64,000 nucleotides of DNA. Origin: Deltaproteobacteria bacterium. Its GTDB lineage: Bacteria > Desulfobacterota_D > UBA1144 > Nemesobacterales > CSP1-2. The stretch is taken from assembly GCA_052390235.1 (NCBI GenBank), contig JBQTHB010000006.1:195579-259578 (forward strand), read 5' to 3'. This document shows, in pieces, positions 408-63,926 of the stretch; the stretch's first letter is position 1, and each line of letters begins with the position of its first letter. The notes under the pieces were generated by a model. That model was not told the origin of the DNA. It saw nothing but the letters and a program-made list of their open reading frames with translations, and did not search any database. A program made the position numbers and the translations under genes.

Positions 408-2366
408 TTAATCCTCCGGCACGGCGATTTCATATACGACAAACCCCTGGCTAATCCCCTTTGCCGTGATACTGCCCGCGCACCTCGCAGATACGAAATC
501 CTTCACGCGCTCAAACACAGGCTCGCTTACTAAAATCCCCTCCACTGGGGCGACGCTCTCTAGCCTCTGAGCCAAATTCACATTCGCCCCAATGACCGTA
601 TAATCCATGCGCTTGAGCGACCCCATGTTGCCCACAACGACGTCGCCCGTATTAATTCCGACGCGGATTTTTATCGCAAGCCTCCCCTCGGCTTCCCACC
701 TGCGCCTAAGCCGGCGCGTTTTTTGCTGCATTTCAATGGCGGCTCTGACGGCGCGAAGGGCGTGGTCTGGCTGATGAACCGGATCTCCGAAGAATACCAT
801 CAGTCCGTCGCCGATGAATTTGTCTATCGTCCCCTCGTGTTTGAATACGATTTTTGCCATCTCGTCGAAATATTCGTTTAGCGTAAGCCGTATCTGCTCC
901 GGCTCTTGAGTGGTTGACCACGATGTGAAGCCCGATATGTCGCTGAATAGGACGGTGAGGGATTTTCTCTCGCTCGCCATGAGTTTTTCCGGGGATTTTA
1001 AAATTTTATTCAGCACCCCAGGGGCAAAATAATTCTCGAACATACGCCTCAGATACGCCTTTTCCCGTTCCTCGGCGAGATAGCGGTAGGCGTTCACGGA
1101 AACGAGGGCGAATATAAATCCGAGCGACGGGCGGACGGCGTTTGTGAGGGTGTTCTGATGGAGAAAGAGCCAAACGACCGAGGCGGCAAAGACGACGAAG
1201 AGGAGCAGAGCGCATATTGAAAATCGCGCCGCCCGAAACCTGAGCGCGAATAACACGAGAAACACTATTAAGCCCACATCGGCAAGCGCGCTCCAAGCGG
1301 GTGAAAGCTCGCTTAGGAAATTCTCCGTCAGCACCGTGTTGGCAATATTCGCATGGACGCCGCTCAGGGGATAGGCGTTCTCAAGGGGGATGGGCCCTAT
1401 GTCCCCGGCTCCGGTGGAAACATCTGCAACAATTGCCAAATCCCCCTGCATGACCTCCCGCAGTTCGTCGAGAGCGGCGGCATCTCCCTCGGCCCCCAGG
1501 AGAGCCGAGAAGGAGTAGTGCTTGAAAGAATCGTTCCATGTACCTGCGAAGTTCAGAATCATACGCCCCCTGCCGTCAACGGGAATGGCAACATCCCTCA
1601 CCCCGCCGTCTGGGAATTTCGCTCCCCGAAGGGTAATCCTCCCGCGAGATAGCTCGATACGCTCCGGGGGAACGCCGAGATAATCGCATACCATGCGAAA
1701 TGTCAAGCTCGGCGCGTAGCCGTCTCCATATCGGATGAGAAGGGCAAACCGCCTATAGACTCCGTCTGCGTCGGGATATGCCGTGATGTGTCCGACTCCC
1801 TTGGCAAATTTCGCCAAATCTGGAAAAGTCGGATACGCCCCCTTTGCCGCCAGCATGGATTCGCCGCCGCCAAAATCGCGGGGACGCCAGAGGGTCTCGT
1901 CCATCAGCGCCTGCTCTTGAGGGGATAGCGCAGGGGGAGCAGATACGCCACCATATTCCTCAAGGGCAAGCACAACGGGGAAATAGACCGTCTTGGCGCG
2001 CTCTGTCGCCTCGATAAAATAGGAGTCGCTCTCTTGGGCAGACGGGCGCTGGAACAAAATGTCGTAGGTTATGGTTTCCGCTCCGCCCTTGGAGAGGATG
2101 TCCGTAATACGCCCGTAGAGGGTTCTATCCCAGGGGAATCCCCTGAGTTCCTGAAGGCTTGAGTCGTTGAGGTCAACGTGGGCTATGTGGGGGTAAATCT
2201 CCTGCCTGCCGAATAATTTATAGCGGAGTTGAAAGAGCTGGTCGTTAGTCTGAAGATTCCACACGCTAAAAACGCTTGGCAGAAGGAGAAATAGGAGCGA
2301 CGCAATGAGAAAAGAGCCGGCGACAAGAGCGGCGATGCGGATTTTATAAGCCCTATTTGTGTTCAA
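408..2366 (-). CDS. Membrane-bound class III adenylate/guanylate cyclase with periplasmic CHASE2 sensor domain
   Basis: 652 aa. The layout is N-terminal TM, a ~300 aa extracytoplasmic region, a cluster of TM helices (LIVFLVLFALRF...LLLFVVFAASVVWLFL), then a C-terminal cyclase catalytic domain with the FSDISGFTSWS...FIGDGLMVFFG signature. Its start overlaps the upstream gene by 14 nt. Confidence 0.85.
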   Translation of the reverse strand: MNTNRAYKIRIAALVAGSFLIASLLFLLLPSVFSVWNLQTNDQLFQLRYKLFGRQEIYPHIAHVDLNDSSLQELRGFPWDRTLYGRITDILSKGGAETITYDILFQRPSAQESDSYFIEATERAKTVYFPVVLALEEYGGVSAPPALSPQEQALMDETLWRPRDFGGGESMLAAKGAYPTFPDLAKFAKGVGHITAYPDADGVYRRFALLIRYGDGYAPSLTFRMVCDYLGVPPERIELSRGRITLRGAKFPDGGVRDVAIPVDGRGRMILNFAGTWNDSFKHYSFSALLGAEGDAAALDELREVMQGDLAIVADVSTGAGDIGPIPLENAYPLSGVHANIANTVLTENFLSELSPAWSALADVGLIVFLVLFALRFRAARFSICALLLFVVFAASVVWLFLHQNTLTNAVRPSLGFIFALVSVNAYRYLAEEREKAYLRRMFENYFAPGVLNKILKSPEKLMASERKSLTVLFSDISGFTSWSTTQEPEQIRLTLNEYFDEMAKIVFKHEGTIDKFIGDGLMVFFGDPVHQPDHALRAVRAAIEMQQKTRRLRRRWEAEGRLAIKIRVGINTGDVVVGNMGSLKRMDYTVIGANVNLAQRLESVAPVEGILVSEPVFERVKDFVSARCAGSITAKGISQGFVVYEIAVPED

Positions 2367-9541: not shown

Positions 9542-10435
9542 GTGCGGGGAGAAACCATGGCAAATGGGCTAAGAGGAGCGGCCGATAGCCGCGCTGTCGA
9601 GCGAATCTCGGTGCAGAAGGTCAGCCGCAGAGGGTTATACACCGAAGAAGAAGACCTCGTCGCCGTCGAAGAGCCGCTTCAAATACGCCTTAATTACCAC
9701 TCTGGCGGGGCGCACAGGCGCAAAACCCTATCAATCACGATGCGCACCCCAGGAGACGACGAAGAGCTTGTCGCGGGGTTTTTATTCACCGAGGGGATTA
9801 TCCAAAGCGCGGGGGACGTCGAGCGTATCAGCGCCGAGGGGAACGTCGCCGAGGCGGAATTGACCACAGATGCGGAGGTTGACCCGTCGGCTTTCGAGCG
9901 GAATTTCTATATGCACTCCGGCTGCGGCGTCTGCGGCAGGGCTTCAATCGAATCCCTAGCCGGGTTGCTCCAGCATCGGAGACTTAAAGAGGGGTATCGC
10001 CGTTTCAGAGCGGACGTTATCTCGCGCCTGCCGATGACTCTGCGAGAGGCGCAGTCGGTCTTTGGATTCACCGGAGGGCTTCACGCCGCCGCCCTTTTCG
10101 ATTCCGAGGGCAATTTACTGGCGATTAGAGAGGACGTGGGTCGCCACAACGCGGTGGATAAGCTCGTAGGCTCGCTCCTGCTCAAAGGGGAAATCCCGCT
10201 CCCAGACAGACTCGTGATGGTAAGCGGGCGGGCGAGCTTTGAACTCGCGCACAAGGCAATTGCCGCCGGATTCTTAGCGCTTGCCGCCGTTGGCGCGCCG
10301 TCGAGCCTGGCTGTGGAGGCGGCGCGGGAATTCAACCTGACGCTTCTTGGGTTTGTGCGCGACGGCAGATTCAACATTTACTGCGGGAGCGAGCGAATCA
10401 CAGAGAGCGGCGAAGGGAATATCGCGGCGCTCTGA
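9542..10435 (+). CDS. fdhD: Formate dehydrogenase accessory sulfurtransferase FdhD
   Basis: 297 aa with the conserved HSGCGVCG active-site cysteine motif and a RHNAVDK motif. Confidence 0.85.
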   Translation: MRGETMANGLRGAADSRAVERISVQKVSRRGLYTEEEDLVAVEEPLQIRLNYHSGGAHRRKTLSITMRTPGDDEELVAGFLFTEGIIQSAGDVERISAEGNVAEAELTTDAEVDPSAFERNFYMHSGCGVCGRASIESLAGLLQHRRLKEGYRRFRADVISRLPMTLREAQSVFGFTGGLHAAALFDSEGNLLAIREDVGRHNAVDKLVGSLLLKGEIPLPDRLVMVSGRASFELAHKAIAAGFLALAAVGAPSSLAVEAAREFNLTLLGFVRDGRFNIYCGSERITESGEGNIAAL

Positions 10436-10518
10436 ATAATCCATGCCGATGGGTGCATCCACAAGTTACCCCTGCCCTACCCCCACAGTCGGAGGGGGCG
10501 GTTTTGGGACAATAAGCC

Positions 10519-12825
10519 ATGGACGAGAGAGAGAAATTAAAACCTAGTCCGCAGACCCCGCAGGAGAGCGGCAAGCCGAGGATTGGGGCGAGGGCAAAGT
10601 CAGCCGCAGGGGGTTTTGCTATCGTCTCCGCAATCAAGCGCGCATACTCGGAAATGGGCGTATCGAGAGGGGTTAGAACGCTTCTTAGGGTGAATCAAAG
10701 GGGCGGTTTCGACTGCCAGAGCTGCGCCTGGCCCAACCCGGAAGAGGAGCGGCATACGGCTGAATTCTGCGAGAACGGGGCAAAAGCCGTCGCCGATGAA
10801 GCGACTCTAAAGCGCGTGAATCCAGATTTTTTCCGCAATTGGACGGTTTCGCGGCTCGCCGAGCAGTCGGATTTCTGGCTCAACGCGCAGGGGCGGCTCG
10901 CTCATCCGATGATTCTTAGGGAGGGAAGCCGGCGCTACGAGCCTCTGTGTTGGGAGGAGGCGTTCGAGATTATCGCAGAGGAGCTAAAATGCCTCTCATC
11001 GCCGGATGAAGCGCTCTTCTACACCTCCGGGCGGACGAGCAACGAGGCGGCTTTTTTGTATCAGCTCTTCGCAAGGGAGTTCGGCACGAATAACCTTCCG
11101 GACTGCTCCAATATGTGCCACGAGTCAAGCGGCAGAGCGCTCGGCGAGGTCATAGGGGTGGGCAAAGGCACGGTGAGCCTCAGGGATTTCGAGCTTGCCG
11201 AGGCGATATTCGTCGTCGGGCAGAACCCGGGGACGAATCATCCGAGAATGCTCGCATCTCTGGAAAAGGCAAAACGCGGGGGCGCGAAAATCGTCGCCGT
11301 AAACCCCCTGCCCGAAGCCGGACTCATGCGCTTTAAAAACCCTCAGGAAATCCTAAGGGGAATCATCGGGGGCGGCACAGAGCTTGCCGACCTCTTCCTT
11401 CAAGTGCGCATCGGAGGGGATATCGCGCTTTTCAAAGGCATCATGAAGCAGATGCTTCAGCGTGAGACCCTGCGCCCCGGCTCGGTCTTAGATTCGGGTT
11501 TCATCAGCGAATTCACCGCAGGATTCGAGGGCTTCAGGGATAGCACAGAGCGCGCGGGATGGGACGAAATCCTGCGGGAGAGCGGCGTCTCGCGGGAGGC
11601 TATCGGCAAAGCCGCGCAGATTGCGGCGCAGTCCAGGGCAACTATTGTCTGCTGGGCTATGGGGATTACTCAGCACAAACACGCCGTGGCAACGATTCAA
11701 GAGATAGTCAATTTCCTGCTCCTGCGAGGGCAAATTGGCAAACCCGGCGCGGGGGTCTGCCCCGTCAGAGGGCATAGCAACGTCCAAGGCGACCGCACCA
11801 TGGGTATTTGCGAGCGACCGACTGAGGCGTTTTTGGACGCTCTGGCGCGCGAGTTTGGCTTCACCCCGCCCCGCCGGCACGGATTCGACACCGTGCAGGC
11901 AATTGAGGCAATGCACAGCGGCAGAGCAAAGGTGTTTATTGCAATGGGAGGGAATTTTCTCTCTGCAACGCCCGACACCCGATACACCGCCCGCGCTCTG
12001 GGAAAATGCTCCCTCACCGTTCAAATATCCACTAAACTCAGCCGCTCGCACCTCATCACTGGAAGGCGCGCTCTCATCCTCCCCTGCCTCGGACGCTCCG
12101 AGCAGGACACTCAGGCATCAGGCGGGCAGTTCGTAACGGTAGAAGACTCGATGAGCATCATAAGCTCCTCACAAGGATTCCTCCCGCCGGCATCAGAGCA
12201 TCTCATGAGCGAGCTTGCTATAGTTGCAGGAATTGCAAGGGCGACTCTCGGAGGGAGAAGCCGAGTAAACTGGCAGGGGTTCGCCGGAAACTATGACCGC
12301 ATCCGGGACTCCATCGAGCGGGTAATTCCGGGATTCGAGGGCTTCAACAAACGCATCCGCGAGGGGAGCTTTTATCTTCCGAACAGGGCAGGAGAGCGAA
12401 AATTCGACACGCCGACGCAGAGGGCGACATTTACAACCCACCCGATCCCCCGCGCCGGAGTGGAATCGGGGCGATACGCGATGATGACCATCCGAAGCCA
12501 CGACCAGTTCAACACGACCGTTTACGGCTTGGACGACCGCTACCGCGGGGTTTATGGCGGCAGGCGCGTAATTTTTCTCAACGCCGAAGATATGAGAGAT
12601 GAGGGGATTGCCGAGGGTCAGTTTGTGGACATCACGAGCCACTTCGAGGGCGAAGAGCGCGGGGCAGAGAAATTCGCCGCCGTCCCCTATGACATCCCCA
12701 GAGGGTGCGCCGCGACTTATTTCCCCGAAGCAAACCCTCTAGTGCCGATACGCAGCACGGCTGAGATTAGCAATACGCCCACGTCAAAATTCATCGTCAT
12801 AAGCCTCAAGCCCTCGGAGCAATAA
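10519..12825 (+). CDS. ydeP: Molybdopterin oxidoreductase alpha subunit, FdhF-like YdeP family
   Basis: 768 aa with an N-terminal Cys cluster (CQSCAWPNPEE...C) and a molybdopterin-binding domain. It is closely similar in length and architecture to the YdeP family, and it sits next to fdhD. Confidence 0.8.
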   Translation: MDEREKLKPSPQTPQESGKPRIGARAKSAAGGFAIVSAIKRAYSEMGVSRGVRTLLRVNQRGGFDCQSCAWPNPEEERHTAEFCENGAKAVADEATLKRVNPDFFRNWTVSRLAEQSDFWLNAQGRLAHPMILREGSRRYEPLCWEEAFEIIAEELKCLSSPDEALFYTSGRTSNEAAFLYQLFAREFGTNNLPDCSNMCHESSGRALGEVIGVGKGTVSLRDFELAEAIFVVGQNPGTNHPRMLASLEKAKRGGAKIVAVNPLPEAGLMRFKNPQEILRGIIGGGTELADLFLQVRIGGDIALFKGIMKQMLQRETLRPGSVLDSGFISEFTAGFEGFRDSTERAGWDEILRESGVSREAIGKAAQIAAQSRATIVCWAMGITQHKHAVATIQEIVNFLLLRGQIGKPGAGVCPVRGHSNVQGDRTMGICERPTEAFLDALAREFGFTPPRRHGFDTVQAIEAMHSGRAKVFIAMGGNFLSATPDTRYTARALGKCSLTVQISTKLSRSHLITGRRALILPCLGRSEQDTQASGGQFVTVEDSMSIISSSQGFLPPASEHLMSELAIVAGIARATLGGRSRVNWQGFAGNYDRIRDSIERVIPGFEGFNKRIREGSFYLPNRAGERKFDTPTQRATFTTHPIPRAGVESGRYAMMTIRSHDQFNTTVYGLDDRYRGVYGGRRVIFLNAEDMRDEGIAEGQFVDITSHFEGEERGAEKFAAVPYDIPRGCAATYFPEANPLVPIRSTAEISNTPTSKFIVISLKPSEQ

Positions 12826-34863: not shown

Positions 34864-35343
34864 CTATTTTAAATCCCCGAAGACGAACCCGCCGAGGAAG
34901 TCGGCTTTGGACTCTTTGACTATCATCCACACGCCGTTCACTTTGGCAAATGCTATCACTTCCTGCGCCAGAAACTCGCCCTCGTCCTTATCCACTTTCA
35001 CGCGAACCTTTACCTTCTGAAACACCTCTATTTGCTCGCCGCGCCTGTAAACGTCCCTATCGAGCGACGAGAGCGCGATTTCATCGAATATAGAGATATT
35101 GGCGAGGAACCTCTTTTTAATATCCTCCAAGCCCAGATGCTTGCCCTCTGCATCTTCCCTGTAATTGGGGGCTATTAAAGAGAGATATTTCTCAACGTCT
35201 CTGGTCTCGAAGGCGTTTTCCCTAGACGCAAGAACCGCCTCAATGTCGCGCTCGGATGTGTCGGCGCAGGAAAGGGCGGCGGCAAGAGCGAGGCAAATAA
35301 TAAGGGCGAGAATCGGCAACTTAGTCATTTTTCCGCTTCTCAA
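34864..35343 (-). CDS. Lipoprotein with NTF2-like (SnoaL/DUF4440-type) fold
   Basis: 159 aa with a signal peptide plus the lipobox LSCAD. Its start overlaps the bamD stop. Confidence 0.5.
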   Translation of the reverse strand: MRSGKMTKLPILALIICLALAAALSCADTSERDIEAVLASRENAFETRDVEKYLSLIAPNYREDAEGKHLGLEDIKKRFLANISIFDEIALSSLDRDVYRRGEQIEVFQKVKVRVKVDKDEGEFLAQEVIAFAKVNGVWMIVKESKADFLGGFVFGDLK

Positions 35344-36149
35344 TTGGTTGAATCTCTCTCCTTTTTTTCTATCTTGGAGAGCAAATCCGAGGCTTCGGAG
35401 CGGTATTTCGTGCGTGGAAACTCATCTACCACGCGGGTCAGGGCTTCGCGGGCAGGGGAGAACTGCTCAGCTTCAAAATAGAACTTCCCCATGAGAAACA
35501 GGGACTCCTCAAACACTTTCGTGTCGGGATAGTTGGTTACGACGCCTCTGAACCTCTCGGCGGCGGCTTTGGGATTATCGCGGCTCGCGTAGTATCTGCC
35601 GATGGTAACCTCGCGTTTAGCTAGGATGTTGCGGCACTCGACGATTTTCTTTTTAACCTCTTCGGCTTCGGGAGCGGCGGGGAATTTATCGAGATAGGCG
35701 GTGAAGCGGTTTATAGCCTCCCTAGTGCTTGTGGGGTCTCTGTCGTAGTCGCGTCTCAGGTTGTAGTGAGAAACGGCGAGGCGGTAGGTGGCGTAGGAGG
35801 CCTCTTTGTGGTTCGGATGCCGGCTTAGAAAAGCCTCGTATTCAATGGCGGCTTGCTCGTATTCTTCTTTTTTGAAATACGCGTCGGCGGCTCTGAGTTC
35901 GGCTAGAGTGGCGTAGGAGCTATAGGTGTATTTGAGCTGTATGTCCCTGAGGACGGCAAATATCCTCTCGTAATCCGTGCCGCTTAGAAAACCTATCCTA
36001 CCCTCTTTTTTGGACAACTCCTTGATTGCTATCTGATAGAGCTGTTCGGGGGATTCTTTGCCCGTGGTTAGTTTCTTGCCCCCACCACAGGAGGAGACGG
36101 CTACAACGGCAAAAACGACGACGAGAAGAGAGGCTAATTTTTTCATCAT
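35340..36149 (-). CDS. bamD: Outer membrane protein assembly factor BamD (TPR lipoprotein)
   Basis: 269 aa with the lipobox VSSCGGG and TPR repeats (AAIEYEAFLSRHPNHKEASYATYRLAVSHY). Confidence 0.8.
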   Translation of the reverse strand: MMKKLASLLVVVFAVVAVSSCGGGKKLTTGKESPEQLYQIAIKELSKKEGRIGFLSGTDYERIFAVLRDIQLKYTYSSYATLAELRAADAYFKKEEYEQAAIEYEAFLSRHPNHKEASYATYRLAVSHYNLRRDYDRDPTSTREAINRFTAYLDKFPAAPEAEEVKKKIVECRNILAKREVTIGRYYASRDNPKAAAERFRGVVTNYPDTKVFEESLFLMGKFYFEAEQFSPAREALTRVVDEFPRTKYRSEASDLLSKIEKKERDSTN

Positions 36150-55773: not shown

Positions 55774-56976
55774 ATGGCGCAAATCAAGAAAATTGTGCTT
55801 GCGTACTCCGGCGGCTTGGATACGTCCATCATTCTGCGCTGGCTCATCGAGGAATACGGGGCGGAAGTCGTGGCGTTCGTCGCCGACCTTGGGCAGGGCG
55901 AGGATTTGGACGAGGTACGCCAGAAGGCTCTGAAAACAGGCGCGAGCAAGGTCTATATCGAGGATTTGAGGGAGGAGTTCGTAAGGGATTTCGTATTCAC
56001 GGCTCTTCGGGCGAACGCCGTCTATGAGGGGACGTATCTGCTGGGAACGTCTCTGGGCAGACCGCTTATCGCAAAGAAGCAGATAGAGGTTGCCGCCATG
56101 GAATCCGCCGACGCCGTAGCGCATGGAGCTACGGGAAAGGGGAACGACCAGGTGCGCTTCGAGCTGACTTATTACGCCCTTAATCCCGGAATTCGGGTCA
56201 TCGCCCCTTGGCGGGAGTGGAATCTGAAATCGAGGACGGATTTAATCGAGTACGCCAAGCGGCACGGCATTTCGATTCCTGTAACCCCGAAAAAACCCTA
56301 CAGCTGCGATAGAAACATCTTCCACACGAGCTACGAGGGCGGAATCCTCGAAGACCCTTGGGCTGAGCCGCCTGAGGCGATGTTCGAGAGGACGGTCAAC
56401 CCCGAAAATGCCCCCGACGAGCCGACTTATGTGGATATTGAGTTTTATCAGGGCGTTCCCGTAAGCGTTGACGGCGAGGAGTTGCCGCCCGTCGCCCTGC
56501 TTGCCAAGATAAACGACATCGGCGGCAAAAACGGCGTCGGCAGAGTGGATATGGTAGAGAACCGCTTTGTCGGCATAAAATCCCGCGGAGTCTATGAAAC
56601 CCCCGGCGGAACGATACTTCACGCCGCCCACAGAGGGGTTGAATCCATCACCATGGACAGGGAATCCATGCACCTCAGAGACGACCTAATGCCGAGATTC
56701 GCCGAGCTTATCTATTATGGATTTTGGCACTCGCCGGAGATGAAAATGCTCAGAGCCGCAATAGAAGAATCGCAGAAGACGATAACCGGCGCGGCAAGGG
56801 TTAAAATTTACAAGGGCAACGTTTGGGTAGCCGGAAGGCGCTCGCCCTATTCGCTCTATCAGAAGGACTTGGCGACGTTTGAAGAGGATAGAGTCTATAA
56901 TCAAGCCGACGCCACGGGGTTCATCAAACTCAACGCCCTTAGACTCTCCGTAAACAAGCTCTCGGAAAACAAATAA
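55774..56976 (+). CDS. argG: Argininosuccinate synthase
   Basis: 400 aa with the ATP-PPase motif AYSGGLDTS and the pattern [13 protein letters not shown]. Confidence 0.95.
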
Positions 56977-57027
56977 ACGGGCGGGGCGGATTGCCCACCG
57001 GGCGGGAGTCCGTCCATCGTTGCCGAA

Positions 57028-58035
57028 ATGAAAACCTCGGATTTCGACTACCCGCTTCCCGAAAATCTCATCGCCTCATACCCGCTTCCAGGCAGAGACG
57101 CATCTAGGCTGCTGCGCTTGGACAGGTACAGCGGCAACATCGCCCATCTCGGATTCCGAGACCTTCCCGCGCTTCTCGTCGAAGGCGACCTCCTCGTGCT
57201 GAATGATACGAAAGTGATACCGGCGAGGCTCATGGGCAAATCCAGAGGATACGGCAGATTCGAGGTTTTACTACTAGAGAAGCTCTCGCCGACGCTCTGG
57301 AAGAGCATGATGCGAAACCCTAAGCACGGGGCGGCGGTGGAATTTCAATCTGGAATGAGGGGGAGAATTATCAAAAACGGGAGAGAGGGCTGGCTCTTTG
57401 AATTCGAGCGCGCGGCTGAGGAATACATCGAGCAGTTCGGGAGTATGCCTCTTCCGCCCTACATCAGGCGGGACGCTGAGGAGGCTGATAGGCAGAATTA
57501 TCAGACCGTTTATGCGAGGCAGGACGGCTCAGCCGCCGCGCCGACAGCGGGGCTGCATTTTACCGAAAACCTGCTTGGGCGGATTAGACAAAAGGGCGTG
57601 GATTTGTGCTTCGTTACGCTCCACGTCGGGGCGGGAACTTTTCAGCCCGTAAAAAGCGAAGAGATAGAGAAACATAAAATGCACTCGGAGTGGAGAGAAA
57701 TCGGCGCTGACGCGGCGGCGGCGATAAACAGCGCGAAACGCGATGGAAGAAGGGTCATAGCCGTAGGCACGACAGCCGTGAGAACTATTGAGTCGGCGGC
57801 GGCGGGCGAGGGGGAGATTCAGCCTGCTTTGGGCTATACGGATATTTTTATCACTCCCGGATTTAATTTCCGCATCGTGGACGGGATGATAACGAATTTT
57901 CACACTCCGCGTTCGACGCTTCTGATGCTGGTTTCGGCTTTTGCAGGTCGCGAGAGGATACTGCGCGCCTACGATGCCGCAGTCGGAGAGGGATACAGAT
58001 TCCTAAGCTACGGCGACGCCATGATAATCCTCTAA
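57028..58035 (+). CDS. queA: S-adenosylmethionine:tRNA ribosyltransferase-isomerase
   Basis: 335 aa starting MKTSDFDYPLPENLIA, with an AGLHFT motif and a GTTAVR motif. Confidence 0.92.
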   Translation: MKTSDFDYPLPENLIASYPLPGRDASRLLRLDRYSGNIAHLGFRDLPALLVEGDLLVLNDTKVIPARLMGKSRGYGRFEVLLLEKLSPTLWKSMMRNPKHGAAVEFQSGMRGRIIKNGREGWLFEFERAAEEYIEQFGSMPLPPYIRRDAEEADRQNYQTVYARQDGSAAAPTAGLHFTENLLGRIRQKGVDLCFVTLHVGAGTFQPVKSEEIEKHKMHSEWREIGADAAAAINSAKRDGRRVIAVGTTAVRTIESAAAGEGEIQPALGYTDIFITPGFNFRIVDGMITNFHTPRSTLLMLVSAFAGRERILRAYDAAVGEGYRFLSYGDAMIIL

Positions 58036-58559: not shown

Positions 58560-60074
58560 TTACCGACTACACTCAAACGCCTCAAAACAGTCCGGGTCGT
58601 TGCAATCTATAAGTCCGTCGCCGTCGTTATCGAAATTGTCGGAGCAGGTTGACTCCGTGGGTTCGCATCCCGTGGAAAGGGCGCAGTCCGGGTCGGCGCA
58701 GTCGAGAAAACCGTCGCCGTCGTTATCAATGCCGTCAGCGCAGCCGGGTATTTCCACCGCGGGCGTCGGCGTAGGTGTTGGAGTAGGAGTAGGCGTAGGT
58801 GTTGGAGTAGGCGTTGGTGTGGGCGTTGGTGTCGGAGTTAGACAAATCCCGCCGGTGCATATCCCCGCTATTCCATGAAGTACACACATCTGTCCATCAC
58901 AGTCGGAATCAGCGCAGTCGGTAAATTCATCCGAGTCGTTATCAGCCGAATCACTACACTCCAGCCCCGTCTCAGTGCAAGCGGAAGAGCCAGCGCAATC
59001 GGAATCCGCGCAGTCGAGAAGCCCATCGCCGTCGTTATCAGCGCCGTCGCTGCAGGTTGCCTCTGGAATCTCGCAGACAGCGCCGCAGGGCCCCGTTTGC
59101 CCCTCGCAATCCGAATCCGCGCAGTCTATGAAATTATCGCCGTCGTTATCGGCGCCGTCGTTGCACGTTGCCTCTGGAATCTCGCACACCTGCCCGGCGT
59201 CTCCCATTTGCCCCTCGCAGCTAGAATCGGCGCAGTCCGCGAGATTATCGCCGTCATTGTCCATAGAATCGCTACAATCCGAGCCAGACTCGACGCAGGC
59301 GGGGGAGTTATTGCAGTCCGCATCCTCGCAGTCAGCCGCGCCGTCGCCGTCGTCGTCAACTACATTTGAGCAGTTCTCGCCGGGAATCGGAGTAGGCGCA
59401 GGGGTAGGAGTAGCAGGTACGGGACTAGGGGTAGGCGTGGGAGTTACGACCGGAGGTTCTACTTCACACATCCCGTTTATGCAAATCCCAGAGTCGCCGC
59501 CGAGAACGCAAGCCATGCCATCGCAGTCTGCATCTTGGCAATCAACGGATTCGTCCGAGTCGTTGTCAATCCCGTCCACGCAGACCTGCTCGACCTCACT
59601 TGGCGGTTCAACCAGAACGCATTGAATCGCTATGCTATTGCTAGCTCCGGGACTGACATTTACGTTAGCTCCCCCTCTGCAGACAATATCTCCGTTGGCA
59701 TCAAAGGCTATAACGGTAATAAACGACTGACCCTGCGGGACAAATATTCTACTGCTAATCGGAAAGTCAGAAACTTCTATGATTTCTTCGACCGTTTCCG
59801 AGCCAGATTGGCCTGAGATGAGAATAGACACTATGGAATCAAAATCCTGCCTGGATACGGCATCCTGAGGCGATTCCGAGGCTACGAGAGAGCATGAATT
59901 TCTATTGACCACGCTCAGAGAGACTCTTAAAGAGCCGTCGTCGAATTCCTCATCCCCCGGCGACCCGCCGCATGAAAGGAAAAGAAAAATAGAAGCAACC
60001 AACAACATAGCCCTAGCCGCAAATTTTCGTGTGTAGAACACAGAACCCCTGTAATTGTTTCTATATTGCGCCAA
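58560..60074 (-). CDS. Lipoprotein with 8 tandem Cys-framed EF-hand/Excalibur-like (DNDGDG) calcium-binding modules and Pro/Thr-rich stalks; paralog A
   Basis: 504 aa with a signal peptide and lipobox (FLSCGG), then a conserved ~120-aa N-domain. Eight modules of the form C-x-D-G-x-D-N-D-G-D-x-L-x-D-C-x-D-x-D-C follow. A (TP)13 linker separates modules 6 and 7. Confidence 0.7.
   Translation of the reverse strand: MAQYRNNYRGSVFYTRKFAARAMLLVASIFLFLSCGGSPGDEEFDDGSLRVSLSVVNRNSCSLVASESPQDAVSRQDFDSIVSILISGQSGSETVEEIIEVSDFPISSRIFVPQGQSFITVIAFDANGDIVCRGGANVNVSPGASNSIAIQCVLVEPPSEVEQVCVDGIDNDSDESVDCQDADCDGMACVLGGDSGICINGMCEVEPPVVTPTPTPSPVPATPTPAPTPIPGENCSNVVDDDGDGAADCEDADCNNSPACVESGSDCSDSMDNDGDNLADCADSSCEGQMGDAGQVCEIPEATCNDGADNDGDNFIDCADSDCEGQTGPCGAVCEIPEATCSDGADNDGDGLLDCADSDCAGSSACTETGLECSDSADNDSDEFTDCADSDCDGQMCVLHGIAGICTGGICLTPTPTPTPTPTPTPTPTPTPTPTPTPAVEIPGCADGIDNDGDGFLDCADPDCALSTGCEPTESTCSDNFDNDGDGLIDCNDPDCFEAFECSR
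58761..58838 (-). repeat. Hexanucleotide tandem repeat (13 x NGG-NGT on the plus strand) encoding (Thr-Pro)13
   Basis: The repeat is an in-frame microsatellite inside paralog A. Wobble positions vary between units. Confidence 0.8.
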
Positions 60075-60123
60075 TATAAAGCCCCCTAACTAACAAGCCC
60101 TCAGCCGATATTGCAGGTCAGCA

Positions 60124-61338
60124 TCATGGAAGAAGACACACACCCTCGCTACATATTCCAGCCTGATCGTGAATCAAACACACTTCGCCATCGCAGTCAA
60201 AATCTTGGCAGTCGCTATTTCCATCTCCGTCGTTATCGAAATTGTCATTGCAGGTTGACTCTGGGAATTCACAATTTGAGAATAACCCTCTGCAGTCCGG
60301 GTCGGCGCAGTCGTGTAATTGGTCTCCGTCATTATCCTGTCCGTCCAGACACTCGTCTCCGGTCTCGGTGCATCTGGGGTCGGAGGCGCAGTCGGAATCC
60401 TGACAGTCGAATTGGAAATCCCCGTCGTTGTCGGCAAAATCATCGCAGGTTAGCTCTCTAGAGAATTCGCATTGGAAGGGCTGACCTTCTTGCAAGGGGG
60501 AGGATCCTACAGTAACTCCGTCGCAATTCGAGTCGGCGCAGTCAATAAGCCCGTCGCCGTCGTTATCGGCGAAATCATCGCAGGTTGACTCGGAAAATTC
60601 GCAAATAGCCTGACATGGGCCCACCTGTCCGACGCAGTCGAAATCGGCGCAGTCTATAAGCCTGTCCCCGTCGTCGTCCATCCCGTTTGCGCAATTTTCA
60701 TTCATGCCGGGCGTAGGGGAAGGCTCGGGGGTTATTATTGGGGATGTCGTGGGCGTGGGTTGAACGCTCGGCGTTGGCGCTGGGGAGGTCTGAATTACGC
60801 ACAAGCCAAGCGAGCAGACCCCGCTAATGCCGTCTATGGAGCAGACATCGCCGCTGCAATCTGGGTCGGCGCAATCAGTTAAATCGTCTCCGTCGTTATC
60901 CTGTCCATCGCCGCAGACCAGTTCTATGCCCTCGCCGGGTACAAGCGCGCAGGGGATTACCACTGCGTTCTCTCCGGGGAGAATTTCGGTGTTAATACCC
61001 CCCATGCAGATGACCGTCTGATTTGCGTCCGTCCCTACGACGGTAATGGCGAGGGGCCCAAGCGGGAAAAAGATTTGAACCTGAGCGGTTAGCCCGCCGA
61101 CAGCAAAGGATTCTTCAATTGTTTCAGAGCCGGACAGCCCCGAAATTGTTACAGAAGTAATGTCCTGAAACTGTCTCGGAGAAGAACCAAAACCGCCAGG
61201 GCAAAAGCCCTCGTCAAATCTCAACGAGACCCTCAGCGAAGAGCCGCCAGAAATTTCGCCGCCACCACCAGCTCCTCCGCAGGATATGTAAATCATCAGC
61301 GTCAGCATTAACGGAGCAAGGAGGAGTCTCTTATTCAA
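60124..61338 (-). CDS. Lipoprotein with 6 tandem Cys-framed DNDGDG calcium-binding modules; paralog B
   Basis: 404 aa with a signal peptide and lipobox (YISCGG). The N-domain is homologous to paralog A (LRVSL...SGxSGSET...). The P/T/S-rich linker is IQTSPAPTPSVQPTPTTSPIITPEPSPTP. Confidence 0.7.
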   Translation of the reverse strand: MNKRLLLAPLMLTLMIYISCGGAGGGGEISGGSSLRVSLRFDEGFCPGGFGSSPRQFQDITSVTISGLSGSETIEESFAVGGLTAQVQIFFPLGPLAITVVGTDANQTVICMGGINTEILPGENAVVIPCALVPGEGIELVCGDGQDNDGDDLTDCADPDCSGDVCSIDGISGVCSLGLCVIQTSPAPTPSVQPTPTTSPIITPEPSPTPGMNENCANGMDDDGDRLIDCADFDCVGQVGPCQAICEFSESTCDDFADNDGDGLIDCADSNCDGVTVGSSPLQEGQPFQCEFSRELTCDDFADNDGDFQFDCQDSDCASDPRCTETGDECLDGQDNDGDQLHDCADPDCRGLFSNCEFPESTCNDNFDNDGDGNSDCQDFDCDGEVCLIHDQAGICSEGVCLLP

Positions 61339-61396: not shown

Positions 61397-62194
61397 TTAC
61401 TGTCCCCCGGGAGATGGCGGAATCACTATATCCACTGGCGCTCTGCCTTCGGAATCAACCCCCGGAAGCTGGTCTGCGGGCTGTTCCAGCGGGAGCTCCG
61501 GCAGAGAGCGCAGTACAGGAGAATCGTCTGAAGCCGGAGTGTTAGGGTCTTTGCCCGGATAATCTTCATACAATGAGTCCCTGAGCGGAACGCCCTCTTG
61601 GAAGTCTGTATCGCTGAACTCTTCTTTTAATTTACTGCTGAGTGCCTCTGGGTCGGAAGGGTCGCCATCTATGATTCTCGTACACTCGCCAGAGTTAAGC
61701 AAAACCTCTCTGGTTTTCCCCTTCACCGACACTGCCCCCTCGACGACGCAGAATATCCCCTTGGCGTTAACGAGCAGAGTCGTTCCCTTCACGCCGGCGA
61801 CGGCGTTGGGGGTGGCGTACTCAACGGTTGACTCGCCTTCAATTCTCTGCACGATGGATTTGAGCTTTCCCTTCGTGAGGGTGGATAAGGACTTTCTTTT
61901 TCCCGGATTATAGGCAAATTCGGTGATTTCAAACTCGGCGTTTGCTCCGAGAGAAATTAAAGTATCGTCCTCAAATAGTATCTTAGCCCCGGAATCGTCT
62001 CCAGTTTCGATTAAATCCCCAAGATAGGCTCTCGCGCCTTGCTTGACCTGCTCTAGGGTCTCTACGCCCGTGATTTTAACCTGCCCATTGGCGGCTGTAA
62101 TCACCCCTACGGGCTGAGGGGACTGGGCATTGGCGACTGAAAGCCATAAAACCGAGAGCATTATATATGATAAAACAACAGAGCTAATTTTCAT
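61397..62194 (-). CDS. Secreted FecR-domain protein
   Basis: 265 aa with a signal peptide and a FecR-like beta-sandwich region (ITAANGQVKITGV...GARAYLGDLIETGDDSGAKILFEDDTLISLGANAEFEI). The C-terminal tail is Pro/acidic-rich. Confidence 0.65.
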   Translation of the reverse strand: MKISSVVLSYIMLSVLWLSVANAQSPQPVGVITAANGQVKITGVETLEQVKQGARAYLGDLIETGDDSGAKILFEDDTLISLGANAEFEITEFAYNPGKRKSLSTLTKGKLKSIVQRIEGESTVEYATPNAVAGVKGTTLLVNAKGIFCVVEGAVSVKGKTREVLLNSGECTRIIDGDPSDPEALSSKLKEEFSDTDFQEGVPLRDSLYEDYPGKDPNTPASDDSPVLRSLPELPLEQPADQLPGVDSEGRAPVDIVIPPSPGGQ

Positions 62195-62223: not shown

Positions 62224-63732
62224 TTAGAACCTAACGCTCAGCGTGGCTGAAACCACGTTTCTCGAATAATCGAACGGCTCGCCTGCAGGAACGTCGCTGT
62301 CCGAGAGGTTTGAAATGTGCTGATAGCCAAAATCAACCGATAAATTCTTATAAACCTTCTTTGACACTACGACCCTGAAGCGAAGCTCATTATCAACCCT
62401 CTCGAAGGGGTCGTTGTGGTAATCCTCTCTGGAATAGCTCGCATCGGAGAAAACCACGAGGTCATAGGGAAGAAGCAAGAATCCCTCGACGAAAACCCCC
62501 GGCGCGTAGTAATCGAAATTGCGCCTGCCCGCTATGTCATCGGCGCTGTTGATTTCAAATTTAACCCCCGGCCTAATGAGCAACTTGCCATCCCGAAGGA
62601 GGAACGTCTGGGCTAGGACAACGGCATTATTTACGGCGTCTCTTTCGGGGAAATCCTCAAAATCGTCGAATCTCAACTGATAGGAGAGGTCAGTACTGGT
62701 GATATTGCTCCATTTAACTGTTATCTTGGGGCTGACCAGATGGTACTGAGAGAATAAATCACTCGCAGGAGAGCCGTCTATTAGCACAACGTCGTAGGCG
62801 TAATCGAGTCTGAAGGAGACGAGTTTCTCGGCTAAAGTAACCCTCTTTTCCCCATACACGCCGAAGCGGTGGTCTTGGATGTTGAACTCGTCCAGGTCGT
62901 TATGGAAAGAGAAATAGGTCTTATAATCTAAGCCTATTACGGCATCGGGTTTCAAATAGGGCTTAAAGCCGAGGTTAGCGATGAAAACCCCGCGCACGTC
63001 GCTTTGGTCTGTAATTTCAACGTCGTTAGGCTCAAGCGAGACGTTGTCGTCGAACTGGGCGCCCACGCTGACCAAGCCGTAGTATTTTTTGGTGAGCCTC
63101 TCAATGGCGGCGAGATAATCTATCGAGGCTTTGGCAAAGCTAGTTTCAGGCTGGAGCGTGCGGACAGTCTCGAAGTCAGTTTTTGCGGTTTGATATTCGG
63201 CAATCTGGTAGTGGCTCGCCCCCTTGTAAAACTTGGAAGGAAGCAATACCTCGGAGTCGAGTCCCGCCGCTTTATCTAGGGACGCGGCAGAGGCTTGATA
63301 TTTGCCGAGCTGATACTGCGTATAGCCTAGGTTATATTGGGCGAGGCCGCTTTTAGGGTTTCTAGTTACGGCTTCGGTAAATTCCGCCTCTGCCATGGCT
63401 AGGTCTCCGGTTTTAAGATAAACAGCGCCCAAGTCGAGATTTATATCCATGATATTCGGGTCTAGGGATTTTGCCCTCTCGAGATATTTTATTGACTCCA
63501 AGTCCCTTTCCATCTTATAGAGCGAGAGTCCAAGAGCGTGATGAGCCACGGCGCTCTGAGGATTTTCAGCAATAGCCCGCTCGAGGGAACTGACGGCTTC
63601 GGGATAATTCTTATCCAAATAACCGGCGATGCCTTTGTTTAGGTTCACTTCGAATTCCGCAAAAGAGGGATAAGACAGTGTTAATGTTAAAACGGTTAGG
63701 AGAAGACAGTTTCTTAGTTTCAATCCCGCCAC
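62224..63732 (-). CDS. Outer-membrane protein with N-terminal periplasmic TPR domain and C-terminal beta-barrel (Slam/DUF560-like or PgaA-like porin architecture)
   Basis: 502 aa with a signal peptide (LTLSYPSFA) and ~4 TPR repeats. The C-terminal ~290 aa has alternating-hydrophobic beta-strand patterning. The protein ends in an aromatic residue (LSVRF), typical of outer-membrane barrels. Confidence 0.6.
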   Translation of the reverse strand: MAGLKLRNCLLLTVLTLTLSYPSFAEFEVNLNKGIAGYLDKNYPEAVSSLERAIAENPQSAVAHHALGLSLYKMERDLESIKYLERAKSLDPNIMDINLDLGAVYLKTGDLAMAEAEFTEAVTRNPKSGLAQYNLGYTQYQLGKYQASAASLDKAAGLDSEVLLPSKFYKGASHYQIAEYQTAKTDFETVRTLQPETSFAKASIDYLAAIERLTKKYYGLVSVGAQFDDNVSLEPNDVEITDQSDVRGVFIANLGFKPYLKPDAVIGLDYKTYFSFHNDLDEFNIQDHRFGVYGEKRVTLAEKLVSFRLDYAYDVVLIDGSPASDLFSQYHLVSPKITVKWSNITSTDLSYQLRFDDFEDFPERDAVNNAVVLAQTFLLRDGKLLIRPGVKFEINSADDIAGRRNFDYYAPGVFVEGFLLLPYDLVVFSDASYSREDYHNDPFERVDNELRFRVVVSKKVYKNLSVDFGYQHISNLSDSDVPAGEPFDYSRNVVSATLSVRF

Positions 63733-63926
63733 CTTGTGTCCTTAAGGATTTAAATGAAGAAAAGCCGCGCGCCGTGATACACAACAGCCCAGCTTTCAGC
63801 TTACAACTATAACTTTTTATTGTCAATACTAAGCCGCAAATCTCGTAGCAATCGGCGCTCACCCGATAAATTAATCCCGCATACAAGTGTTGACAGCTAA
63901 AATCGAACCCTGTATTTTGTACTCGG

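Follow-up and report, generated by a model that had tools for sequence, protein, structure and literature searches.

What is the nature, and what might be the function, of two adjacent, extremely acidic and cysteine-rich lipoproteins encoded near one end of a 64 kb stretch of deltaproteobacterial DNA (hereafter, the window)? The two genes, located on the minus strand at positions 58560-60074 and 60124-61338, encode proteins of 504 and 404 amino acids, here denoted P1 and P2, with eight and six copies, respectively, of a short, aspartate-rich module framed by cysteines. The first-pass annotation of this locus had presented the module as an undescribed EF-hand/Excalibur-like calcium-binding unit, arrayed in proteins that might serve as adhesins or in a biomineral-related role. 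Here, we report a comparative analysis according to which the module belongs to the catalogued NF033662 family of repeats, is homologous to the calcium-loaded C-rich domain of teneurins, and resides in lipoproteins that are recurrent members of gene clusters encoding CHASE2-containing cyclases. The combination of these elements, that is, NF033662 modules folded into teneurin-like calcium knots within lipoproteins of a CHASE2 cluster, is the best overall explanation of the locus and, in our estimate, a fairly probable one.

Both open reading frames are complete within the limits and on the strand originally assigned. P1 starts at a TTG codon, preceded at a distance of about 8 nt by the ribosome-binding site AGGGGG. 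P2 has a 100% identical counterpart at NCBI, ACT4NX_08855, which is annotated as hypothetical and comes from a 334-kb contig of a metagenome-assembled genome (Deltaproteobacteria bacterium). The two proteins are paralogs, as had been proposed, with 40% identity over nearly the full length (E 4e-104), and both are markedly acidic, with 99 Asp and Glu against 11 Lys and Arg residues in P1, and 76 against 9 in P2. A regular expression search (C-x13-C-x4-C combined with an acidic pattern) retrieved exactly eight modules in P1, with the first cysteine (C1) at residues 165, 235, 267, 304, 341, 373, 445 and 477, and exactly six in P2 (C1 at residues 142, 216, 253, 298, 330 and 363), in agreement with the initial count; the three peptides that had been quoted as examples are all present. 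A scan of all six frames of the entire window recovered these 14 modules and no others.

The module is a known one. The NCBIfam model NF033662 (acidic double-disulfide repeat, acid_disulf_rpt), which describes a repeat of 32 positions and has a curated cutoff of 41 bits, matches P1 with 222.6 bits in eight stretches (E 1.9e-67) and P2 with 138 bits in six stretches (E 5.5e-41), independently reproducing the module count, and a single module scores 52.7 bits. An origin of the pattern by chance or low complexity, which was considered separately, is ruled out by these E-values together with the lack of further modules in the six frames. From the alignment of residues 337-366 of P1 with profile positions 3-32, the cysteines of the model are deduced to occupy positions 7, 21, 26 and 32, so that the family and the modules share the C-x13-C-x4-C-x5-C frame, along with the Asp-rich core and the arrangement in tandem arrays within secreted proteins. 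All 14 modules match approximately the whole profile. At 28-41 amino acids, the modules are longer than the 22-25 initially given, with a fourth cysteine 4-17 residues after the third, the general frame being C-x13-C-x4-C-x4..17-C. Throughout the 14-module alignment, the four cysteines (C1 to C4) are invariant and the x13 and x4 distances do not vary; the C3-C4 gap is the canonical x5 in six modules, x4 in four, x6 in two, x10 in one and x17 in one. Nothing essential distinguishes the P1 and P2 copies from the family model, even if eight of the 14 depart from the C3-C4 distance of 5. In most modules, C1 is preceded by Glu or Asp at position -3 (the usual case) or -1.

The family is also very large. 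When 1.84 billion cluster representatives were searched with a profile built from the 14 modules, 12,980 of them matched at E<=1e-3; of these, 4,862 also pass E<=1e-10, 969 pass E<=1e-30, and a single protein can include as many as 44 matched stretches. A set of 126 top representatives alone contains 872 modules with the C-x13-C-x4-C frame, 683 of these with the fourth cysteine at x5. By source name, the homologs come from Myxococcota, Polyangia, Desulfuromonas, Fibrobacterales, Gracilibacteria, Pacearchaeota and Nanoarchaeia, and in various proteins, the repeat is fused to lamin-tail (LTD), P-domain, PPC, SLH, dockerin, trypsin and pseudopilin domains. The NF033662 repeat is very widespread in extracytoplasmic proteins of bacteria, and occurs in those of some archaea as well; P1 and P2 are ordinary new members of this family, in which arrays of six to eight copies are modest. 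The profile search that had been proposed as a check thus collapses the module into a described family, and because NF033662 has the same cysteine spacing, the notion of an undescribed variant that would form its own family, or of a new calcium-binding module, does not stand. The impression of novelty probably arose because Pfam has no model for this repeat: P1 and P2 match no Pfam family at E<=1 except for a spurious match to CDC48_2. The NCBIfam entry has no function attached, as far as the search output shows, and our literature searches found no paper on the bacterial repeat itself, the one relevant study retrieved with its core sequence being that of Tucker et al. (2012) on teneurins. Among the hosts of NF033662, P1 and P2 represent a narrow subfamily, characterized by a lipobox, a private N-terminal domain and the location in a CHASE2 cluster, and four of their copies of the repeat are followed by a cysteine-containing beta-hairpin element.

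The structural clue to the module comes from eukaryotes. When the 14-module profile and P1 were searched against all PDB sequences, the only significant matches were to teneurins. The profile aligns with the C-rich domain of teneurin-4 (7PLP) with E 1.2e-8, without gaps, over profile positions 3-32, including the fourth cysteine, and teneurin-2, teneurin-3 and fly Ten-m are retrieved with E-values from 3e-5 to 2e-3; in the first PDB search (phmmer), the single module that matched teneurin-4 best was the last one of P1, P1.8. In the opposite direction, NF033662 recognizes the human teneurin-4 C-rich peptide with 44.9 bits (E 7e-12), above its own cutoff, and gives 37.1 bits for the diatom core and 27.8 bits for the Monosiga core, both as quoted by Tucker et al. 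The modules share with the teneurin domain (human teneurin-4 residues 834-871) the core consensus ExxCx(D/N)xxDx(D/E)xDxxxDCxxx(D/E)C (Tucker 2012; PMC6425310), an ungapped alignment of 30 residues and four equivalent cysteines, with C1, C2, C3 and C4 aligned to C838, C852, C857 and C863 of teneurin-4. The teneurin domain differs in that it is present in one copy within a eukaryotic type II membrane receptor, where it is flanked by the EGF repeats and the TTR domain and stabilises a compact dimer, whereas the bacterial module is arrayed six to eight times in lipoproteins. Furthermore, teneurins have six cysteines in this domain, including a CC doublet and a sixth cysteine, with a third disulfide (C858-C869), compared to four in the bacterial module: the six-cysteine tail ...CCxxxxCxxxxxC is not found in P1 and P2, where none of the 14 modules has the CC doublet and the canonical ones end at C4.

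The teneurin-4 C-rich domain has been solved at 1.5 A with three octahedrally coordinated Ca2+ ions, which are bound by E835, D840, D843, N844, D845, D847, D851, D854 and D856 together with three backbone carbonyls, and with the disulfides C838-C857, C852-C863 and C858-C869 (Meijer et al. 2022, PMC9058538). Over the 14 modules, 116 of the 126 positions equivalent to these side-chain ligands (92%) are kept, and eight modules retain all nine. Calcium binding by the modules is therefore likely, because of both the homology to the teneurin-4 domain and the conservation of its ligands. From the teneurin-4 pairs, we infer that C1 would pair with C3, and C2 with C4, and that each module could accommodate up to three Ca2+, which would amount to up to 24 ions in P1 and 18 in P2.

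Calcium binding had been suggested before on the basis of the EF-hand, and although the suggestion itself is retained, its basis has to be replaced. The module core indeed shows the local pattern D-x-D-x-D-G-x-(I/L)-D-x-x-D that is common to EF-hand, dockerin and Excalibur loops; the resemblance goes no further than this DxDxDG-type loop. EF-hand_7 reaches 12.3 bits on a two-module fragment (E 0.22), compared to the cutoff of 30, and does not match the full proteins; EF-hand proteins appear in the PDB profile search at E-values above 0.5; neither P1 nor P2 matches dockerin; and Excalibur (PF05901) is found neither in the full proteins at E<=1 nor in the fragment at E<=10, although the HMMER filters may hide very weak matches. 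An AlphaFold2 model of P2 contains, at low confidence, no helix-loop-helix, only three-residue turns around the loop. By homology, moreover, three overlapping Ca2+ sites that share acidic residues would be expected in each module, as opposed to the one site per loop of EF-hands.

The other repeat with which the module could be confused is the MopE-type motif (PF11617; CxDxxDNDCD), with which it shares the C-x-D-G-x-D-N-D start and which emerges as a sister repeat from the same profile search. The two types are nevertheless distinct, as the first-pass annotation correctly held. On the two-module fragment, PF11617 reaches 8.2 bits (E 4.1), far short of its cutoff of 27, and the full proteins are not matched by it; the position of the cysteine in D-N-D-C-D is occupied by Gly in 12 modules and Ser in two, the Gly form being the common, not a rare, version of the repeat; and the downstream frame D-C-x-D-x-D-C-x5-C is specific to NF033662. 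The kinship could be taken to imply that the metal bound is not calcium but, as for the MopE-type motif, copper or another transition metal: the teneurin core and the MopE motif have been aligned with each other by Tucker et al. 2012 (PMC3278476), the 14-module profile also collects MopE-type CxDxxDNDCD proteins (181 such modules in the 126 top representatives), and some homologs combine both repeat types (PF11617 is found in P0067, P0082 and P0090). We regard this as extremely unlikely in view of the poor PF11617 scores, the absence of any MopE chain at E<=10 in the PDB profile search and the composition of the ligand set, which consists of oxygen ligands only (Asp, Glu, Asn), as is typical of Ca2+, in accord with the Ca2+ present in the solved homolog. 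The 14-module alignment contains no conserved His, Met or free Cys within the module.

Taken together with the teneurin structure, these comparisons suggest how the arrays might be built. Each module of about 30 residues would form a small knot without regular secondary structure, stapled by the two disulfides and holding the calcium ions via eight Asp or Glu side chains, one Asn and backbone carbonyls. The modules, joined by Pro/Thr linkers, would then make up a strongly acidic, calcium-stiffened stalk that is exposed in the envelope. That the arrays are such calcium-filled, disulfide-stapled stalks outside the cytoplasm appears probable to us. The likely mode of action resembles that of thrombospondin type 3 repeats and LDL-receptor A modules, which are likewise small, disulfide-stapled, Ca2+-dependent and arrayed, without regular secondary structure. 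Sites I and II of teneurin-4 are coordinated like thrombospondin type 3 repeats and site III like LDL-receptor A modules; according to Meijer et al., who mention no bacterial homologs, no known fold resembles the complete domain (PMC9058538). The likeness is one of coordination chemistry, carried over from the teneurin structure: P1 and P2 have no TSP_3 or Ldl_recept_a Pfam match, and no such chain was found at E<=10 in the PDB profile search. For the NF033662 family at large, the tie to a calcium-loaded domain offers a structural model, with two disulfides and potentially up to three Ca2+ per 30 residues.

The extracytoplasmic location is suggested by the N-termini. Both proteins begin with a putative signal peptide and lipobox, ..IFLFLS-C35-GG in P1 (59970-60074, minus strand) and ..LMIYIS-C20-GG in P2 (61279-61338, minus strand). 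When compared with the motif [LVI][ASTVI][GAS]-C, Ser at -1 and Cys at +1 fit, but Phe (P1) or Tyr (P2) at -3 is atypical; [IVF][IY][SY]-C-GG is conserved in all orthologs and resembles the VSS-C-GG of BamD from the same genome. The S-C-G-G sequence previously reported for P1, P2 and BamD is present, in BamD as S-C-G-G-G, and lipidation of P1 and P2 is plausible. The lipobox is followed by a family-specific beta-rich N-terminal domain, at residues 36-158 of P1 (59601-59969, minus strand) and 21-135 of P2 (60934-61278, minus strand), the latter with about seven strands predicted at low confidence by AlphaFold2. This N-domain matches no Pfam or NCBIfam model. A search of the large database with the N-domain alignment returned one new protein and failed to recover the known members, so that either the family is very small or the word index missed it; the occurrence of the domain was therefore judged by local HMM searches of the related loci.

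Upstream of P2, on the same strand and with gaps of 29-58 nt, lie genes for a secreted FecR-domain protein of 265 amino acids (61397-62194, minus strand; PF04773, E 2.4e-10) and for an outer-membrane protein of 502 amino acids (62224-63732, minus strand) that combines tetratricopeptide repeats (TPR; residues ~25-213) with a C-terminal 14-strand beta-barrel (residues 217-501; model pLDDT 89.4). In related loci, which were collected from metagenome contigs and GTDB genomes, a conserved gene order is observed: a CHASE2 adenylate/guanylate cyclase (~710 amino acids), the TPR-barrel protein (~500), the FecR protein (~265-300; the one in the window is 55-57% identical to its counterparts) and a lipoprotein with the N-domain. 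A lipoprotein with the same lipobox and N-domain occupies this slot in 12 of the 14 distinct related loci, and P1 and P2 are the last genes of the cluster. Genes for a class II cAMP phosphodiesterase and for cNMP-binding proteins often adjoin the cluster in the related loci. The loci are named Candidatus Dadabacteria, Thermodesulfobacteriota and 'Deltaproteobacteria', and some are binned as Spirochaetia or Ignavibacteriales. Clusters of CHASE2 cyclase, FecR and TPR genes have been noted in Campylobacterota (PMC9239204), and a similar adjacency of the three component types occurs in Sinorhizobium meliloti (cyaD1-smc02177 with NsrA; PMC5498481, PMC13001267), where CHASE2 cyclases perceive their signal via the outer-membrane barrel NsrA (PMC13001267). 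In the published clusters, no acidic-repeat lipoprotein is mentioned as a fourth member (PMC9239204, PMC5498481, PMC13001267), and the TPR protein of the present cluster differs in that it also includes a 14-strand barrel. The lipoproteins thus recur as a fourth element of the CHASE2-cyclase/FecR/TPR clusters, for which few input signals are known.

Within the cluster, the lipoprotein is the fastest-evolving member, with 34-35% identity compared to 55-62% for its partners. Most relatives have retained the lipobox and the N-domain along with the first acidic module and its hairpin; in locus L008, the module is degenerate. Beyond the Pro/Thr linker, the relatives carry from zero to seven further acidic modules, a CARDB/DUF11-like domain or other cysteine-rich segments; the outer end of the lipoprotein family is, judging by these sequences, interchangeable. 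In loci L015 (8414-9466), L007 (10383-11399) and L008 (10297-11205), for instance, the protein in the same slot has CARDB/DUF11-like or unrelated cysteine-rich repeats after the first module and no acidic array. The lipoprotein gene is duplicated in locus L011 as well, and the long arrays are lineage-specific expansions through tandem duplication.

These observations bear on the proposal that the arrays, as products of an undescribed EF-hand/Excalibur-like family, are a high-capacity store of Ca2+ or other divalent ions, a biomineral nucleator or an adhesin. The fit of the core to the DxDxDG-type loop, the extreme acidity of the proteins, the 24 and 18 Ca2+ ions that they could hold by homology, and the rapid evolution and variable architecture of the C-terminal parts, as is often the case in surface-exposed proteins, are all compatible with it. 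It nevertheless seems improbable to us, given that the family is already curated, with the same cysteine spacing, and very large, that the EF-hand and Excalibur scores are as low as described above, and that no flanking helices are predicted in the (low-confidence) model. More to the point, because orthologs in the same operon slot have one module only, or a degenerate one, a large Ca2+ capacity is not the conserved function. The neighbouring genes point, rather, to a signalling cluster with a CHASE2 cyclase.

What, then, would a lipoprotein that probably binds calcium do in such a cluster? Its most likely role would be that of the outer, calcium-stabilised partner or sensor arm of an envelope-spanning cAMP signalling module, with the variable array as the exposed, diversifying end. 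We tentatively suggest, and assign somewhat less than even chances to the idea, that the lipoprotein, the FecR protein and the TPR-barrel cooperate as the outer portion of such a CHASE2/cAMP module. Under a different scenario, which does not exclude the signalling one, the lipoproteins would be cargo, displayed at the surface by the TPR-barrel acting as a Slam-like or PelB/BcsC-like outer-membrane translocon, through which either the whole lipoproteins or their acidic arrays alone would be passed, and the link to the cyclase would be regulatory only. Slam genes usually adjoin the genes of their lipoprotein substrates, and the architecture of the outer-membrane protein, with N-terminal TPR and a 14-strand barrel, resembles that of Slam, BcsC and PelB; for Slam, this is the extent of the similarity. 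Foldseek places the whole TPR-barrel near BcsC (E 7e-12) and PelBC (E 3.6e-10), yet superposition on BcsC and PelB yields low TM-scores (0.34-0.40), and the best fold matches for the barrel itself, which is not covered by any Pfam family, are the generic 14-strand channels CymA and OmpG. Similarly, TPR_Slam (PF24575) matches weakly (E 0.035), with faint matches also in relatives, at 15 bits compared to a cutoff of 35.2, and the Slam barrel family PF04575 (DUF560) has no match at E<=1, so that membership of the TPR-barrel in the Slam family was rejected. The rapid variation of the C-terminal parts of the lipoproteins would suit a displayed cargo; conversely, we know of no precedent for Slam-type systems tied to FecR proteins and CHASE2 cyclases. 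On balance, barrel-dependent surface display of the lipoproteins strikes us as rather unlikely.

Returning to the explanation that we prefer, namely, teneurin-like calcium knots in lipoproteins of a CHASE2 cluster, several points weigh against it. With respect to structure, the third teneurin disulfide has no counterpart in the modules, and the geometry of the sites could accordingly differ; the AlphaFold2 model of mature P2, obtained from an alignment of eight sequences, is poor (mean pLDDT 58.9), and a Foldseek search with it against PDB gave no match at E<=0.001, leaving the fold without independent confirmation. With respect to the cluster, only 268 nt of the window lie upstream of the TPR gene, so that the cyclase gene that should belong to this locus lies outside the view and its presence is deduced from synteny; in loci L008 and L017, the lipoprotein N-domain is not recognisable; and signal perception in S. 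meliloti does not require those FecR and TPR genes that were tested there (PMC5498481), because of which the cluster partners could be outputs of the pathway, not sensors.

A more far-reaching version of the same idea can be formulated, to which we attach a low probability. The lipoproteins could be the outermost, Ca2+-dependent subunit of a new envelope-spanning machine, composed of the lipoprotein, the FecR protein, the TPR-barrel and the CHASE2 cyclase, in which the array would report the level of envelope or external Ca2+, or surface contact, to cAMP synthesis, and the prokaryotic NF033662 family, not a diatom enzyme, would be the source of the teneurin C-rich domain. If this were true, CHASE2, a sensor domain without a known ligand, would gain a defined input pathway. 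As for the evolutionary component, descent from a diatom or alga was proposed by Tucker et al. 2012, who had noticed that the teneurin core resembles both a diatom glucosidase and the MopE motif (PMC3278476). That the NF033662 model scores the human domain above its cutoff bears on this issue, and the domain may in reality derive from the very large prokaryotic family. A link to the YD shell of bacterial teneurin-like proteins was not detected: of 246 repeat proteins, none has three or more YD motifs. One protein, P0065, matches TTR_TEN1-4 at residues 140-210.

The detailed anatomy of the arrays is as follows, with the coordinates of modules, hairpins and linkers given for the minus strand. 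In P1, module P1.1 (residues 162-189; 59508-59591) has all nine teneurin Ca-ligand positions and is followed by the first hairpin element (residues 184-203; 59466-59525) and a Pro/Thr-rich linker (residues 204-231; 59382-59465). The next five modules form a block: P1.2 (residues 232-260; 59295-59381) and P1.3 (residues 264-297; 59184-59285), each with seven of the nine positions; P1.4 (residues 301-334; 59073-59174), with nine and a fifth cysteine, C330, in the sequence GQTGPC; P1.5 (residues 338-366; 58977-59063), with nine and the canonical C-x13-C-x4-C-x5-C frame; and P1.6 (residues 370-397; 58884-58967), with eight. After the second hairpin element (58842-58901) and a (Thr-Pro)n linker (residues 412-441; 58752-58841), encoded by a 6/12/24-nt tandem repeat, P1 ends with P1.7 (residues 442-470; 58665-58751; eight positions) and P1.8 (residues 474-502; 58569-58655; nine positions). 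The DNA encoding P1.3-P1.5 contains a tandem repeat with a period of 111 nt, or 37 amino acids (58994-59255; 2.4 copies, 80% match), which indicates that the array is growing by recent duplication within the gene.

P2 is organized along the same lines. Module P2.1 (residues 139-166; 60841-60924; nine positions) precedes a hairpin element (60799-60858) and a Pro/Thr/Ser-rich linker (residues 181-212; 60703-60798), after which come P2.2 (residues 213-246; 60601-60702), with seven positions and a fifth cysteine, C242, in GQVGPC; P2.3 (residues 250-290; 60469-60591), with eight and the long x17 C3-C4 loop; P2.4 (residues 295-323; 60370-60456), with nine; P2.5 (residues 327-356; 60271-60360), with eight; P2.6 (residues 360-387; 60178-60261), with nine; and the terminal hairpin element (60136-60195). 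The hairpin element (C-x4-C-x8-C-x4-C) thus follows modules 1 and 6 in both paralogs and is predicted to be a small three-stranded sheet, the strands having been modelled for the P2 equivalent.

The fifth cysteine, found in one module per protein (P1.4 and P2.2, GQxGPC), may have a partner elsewhere. In a comparison of P1, P2, the orthologs P0003, P0005, P0006, P0044, P0117 and P0119, and the L007 protein (10383-11399), the first cysteine of the N-domain co-varies with the single fifth cysteine in the G-x-x-G-(P/G/S)-C loop of one acidic module: both are present in seven proteins and both are missing in two (P0003 and L007_4). The co-varying residues are C46 (61201-61203) and C242 (60613-60615) in P2, and C61 (59892-59894) and C330 (59085-59087) in P1. 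This pattern suggests a disulfide that would tie the array back to the N-domain or, alternatively, an intermolecular bond.

Several features of the surrounding DNA deserve mention. The BamD gene (YfiO family; 35340-36149, minus strand; PF13525, E 2e-37), with its lipobox VSS-C-GGG, resembles P1 and P2 in that the mature lipoprotein begins with C-G-G, apparently a habit of this genome. A second gene encoding a CHASE2 and cyclase protein, located near the opposite end of the window (approximately 426-2357, minus strand), is ~30% identical to the cluster-linked cyclases and has, as far as checked, no adjoining FecR or TPR gene. A terminator-like hairpin with a T-run (63764-63785, minus strand) lies about 30 nt upstream of the start of the TPR-barrel gene, before the presumed cyclase gene; terminator-like sites in the region are below the expectation from shuffled sequences, and this hairpin may be due to chance. 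Finally, queA adjoins the cluster on its lipoprotein side in the window as well as in L007 and L004, and argG is also adjacent in the window and L007 (window 55774-58035; L007 11633-13971; L004 10572-11579), so that the whole neighbourhood is syntenic within the lineage.

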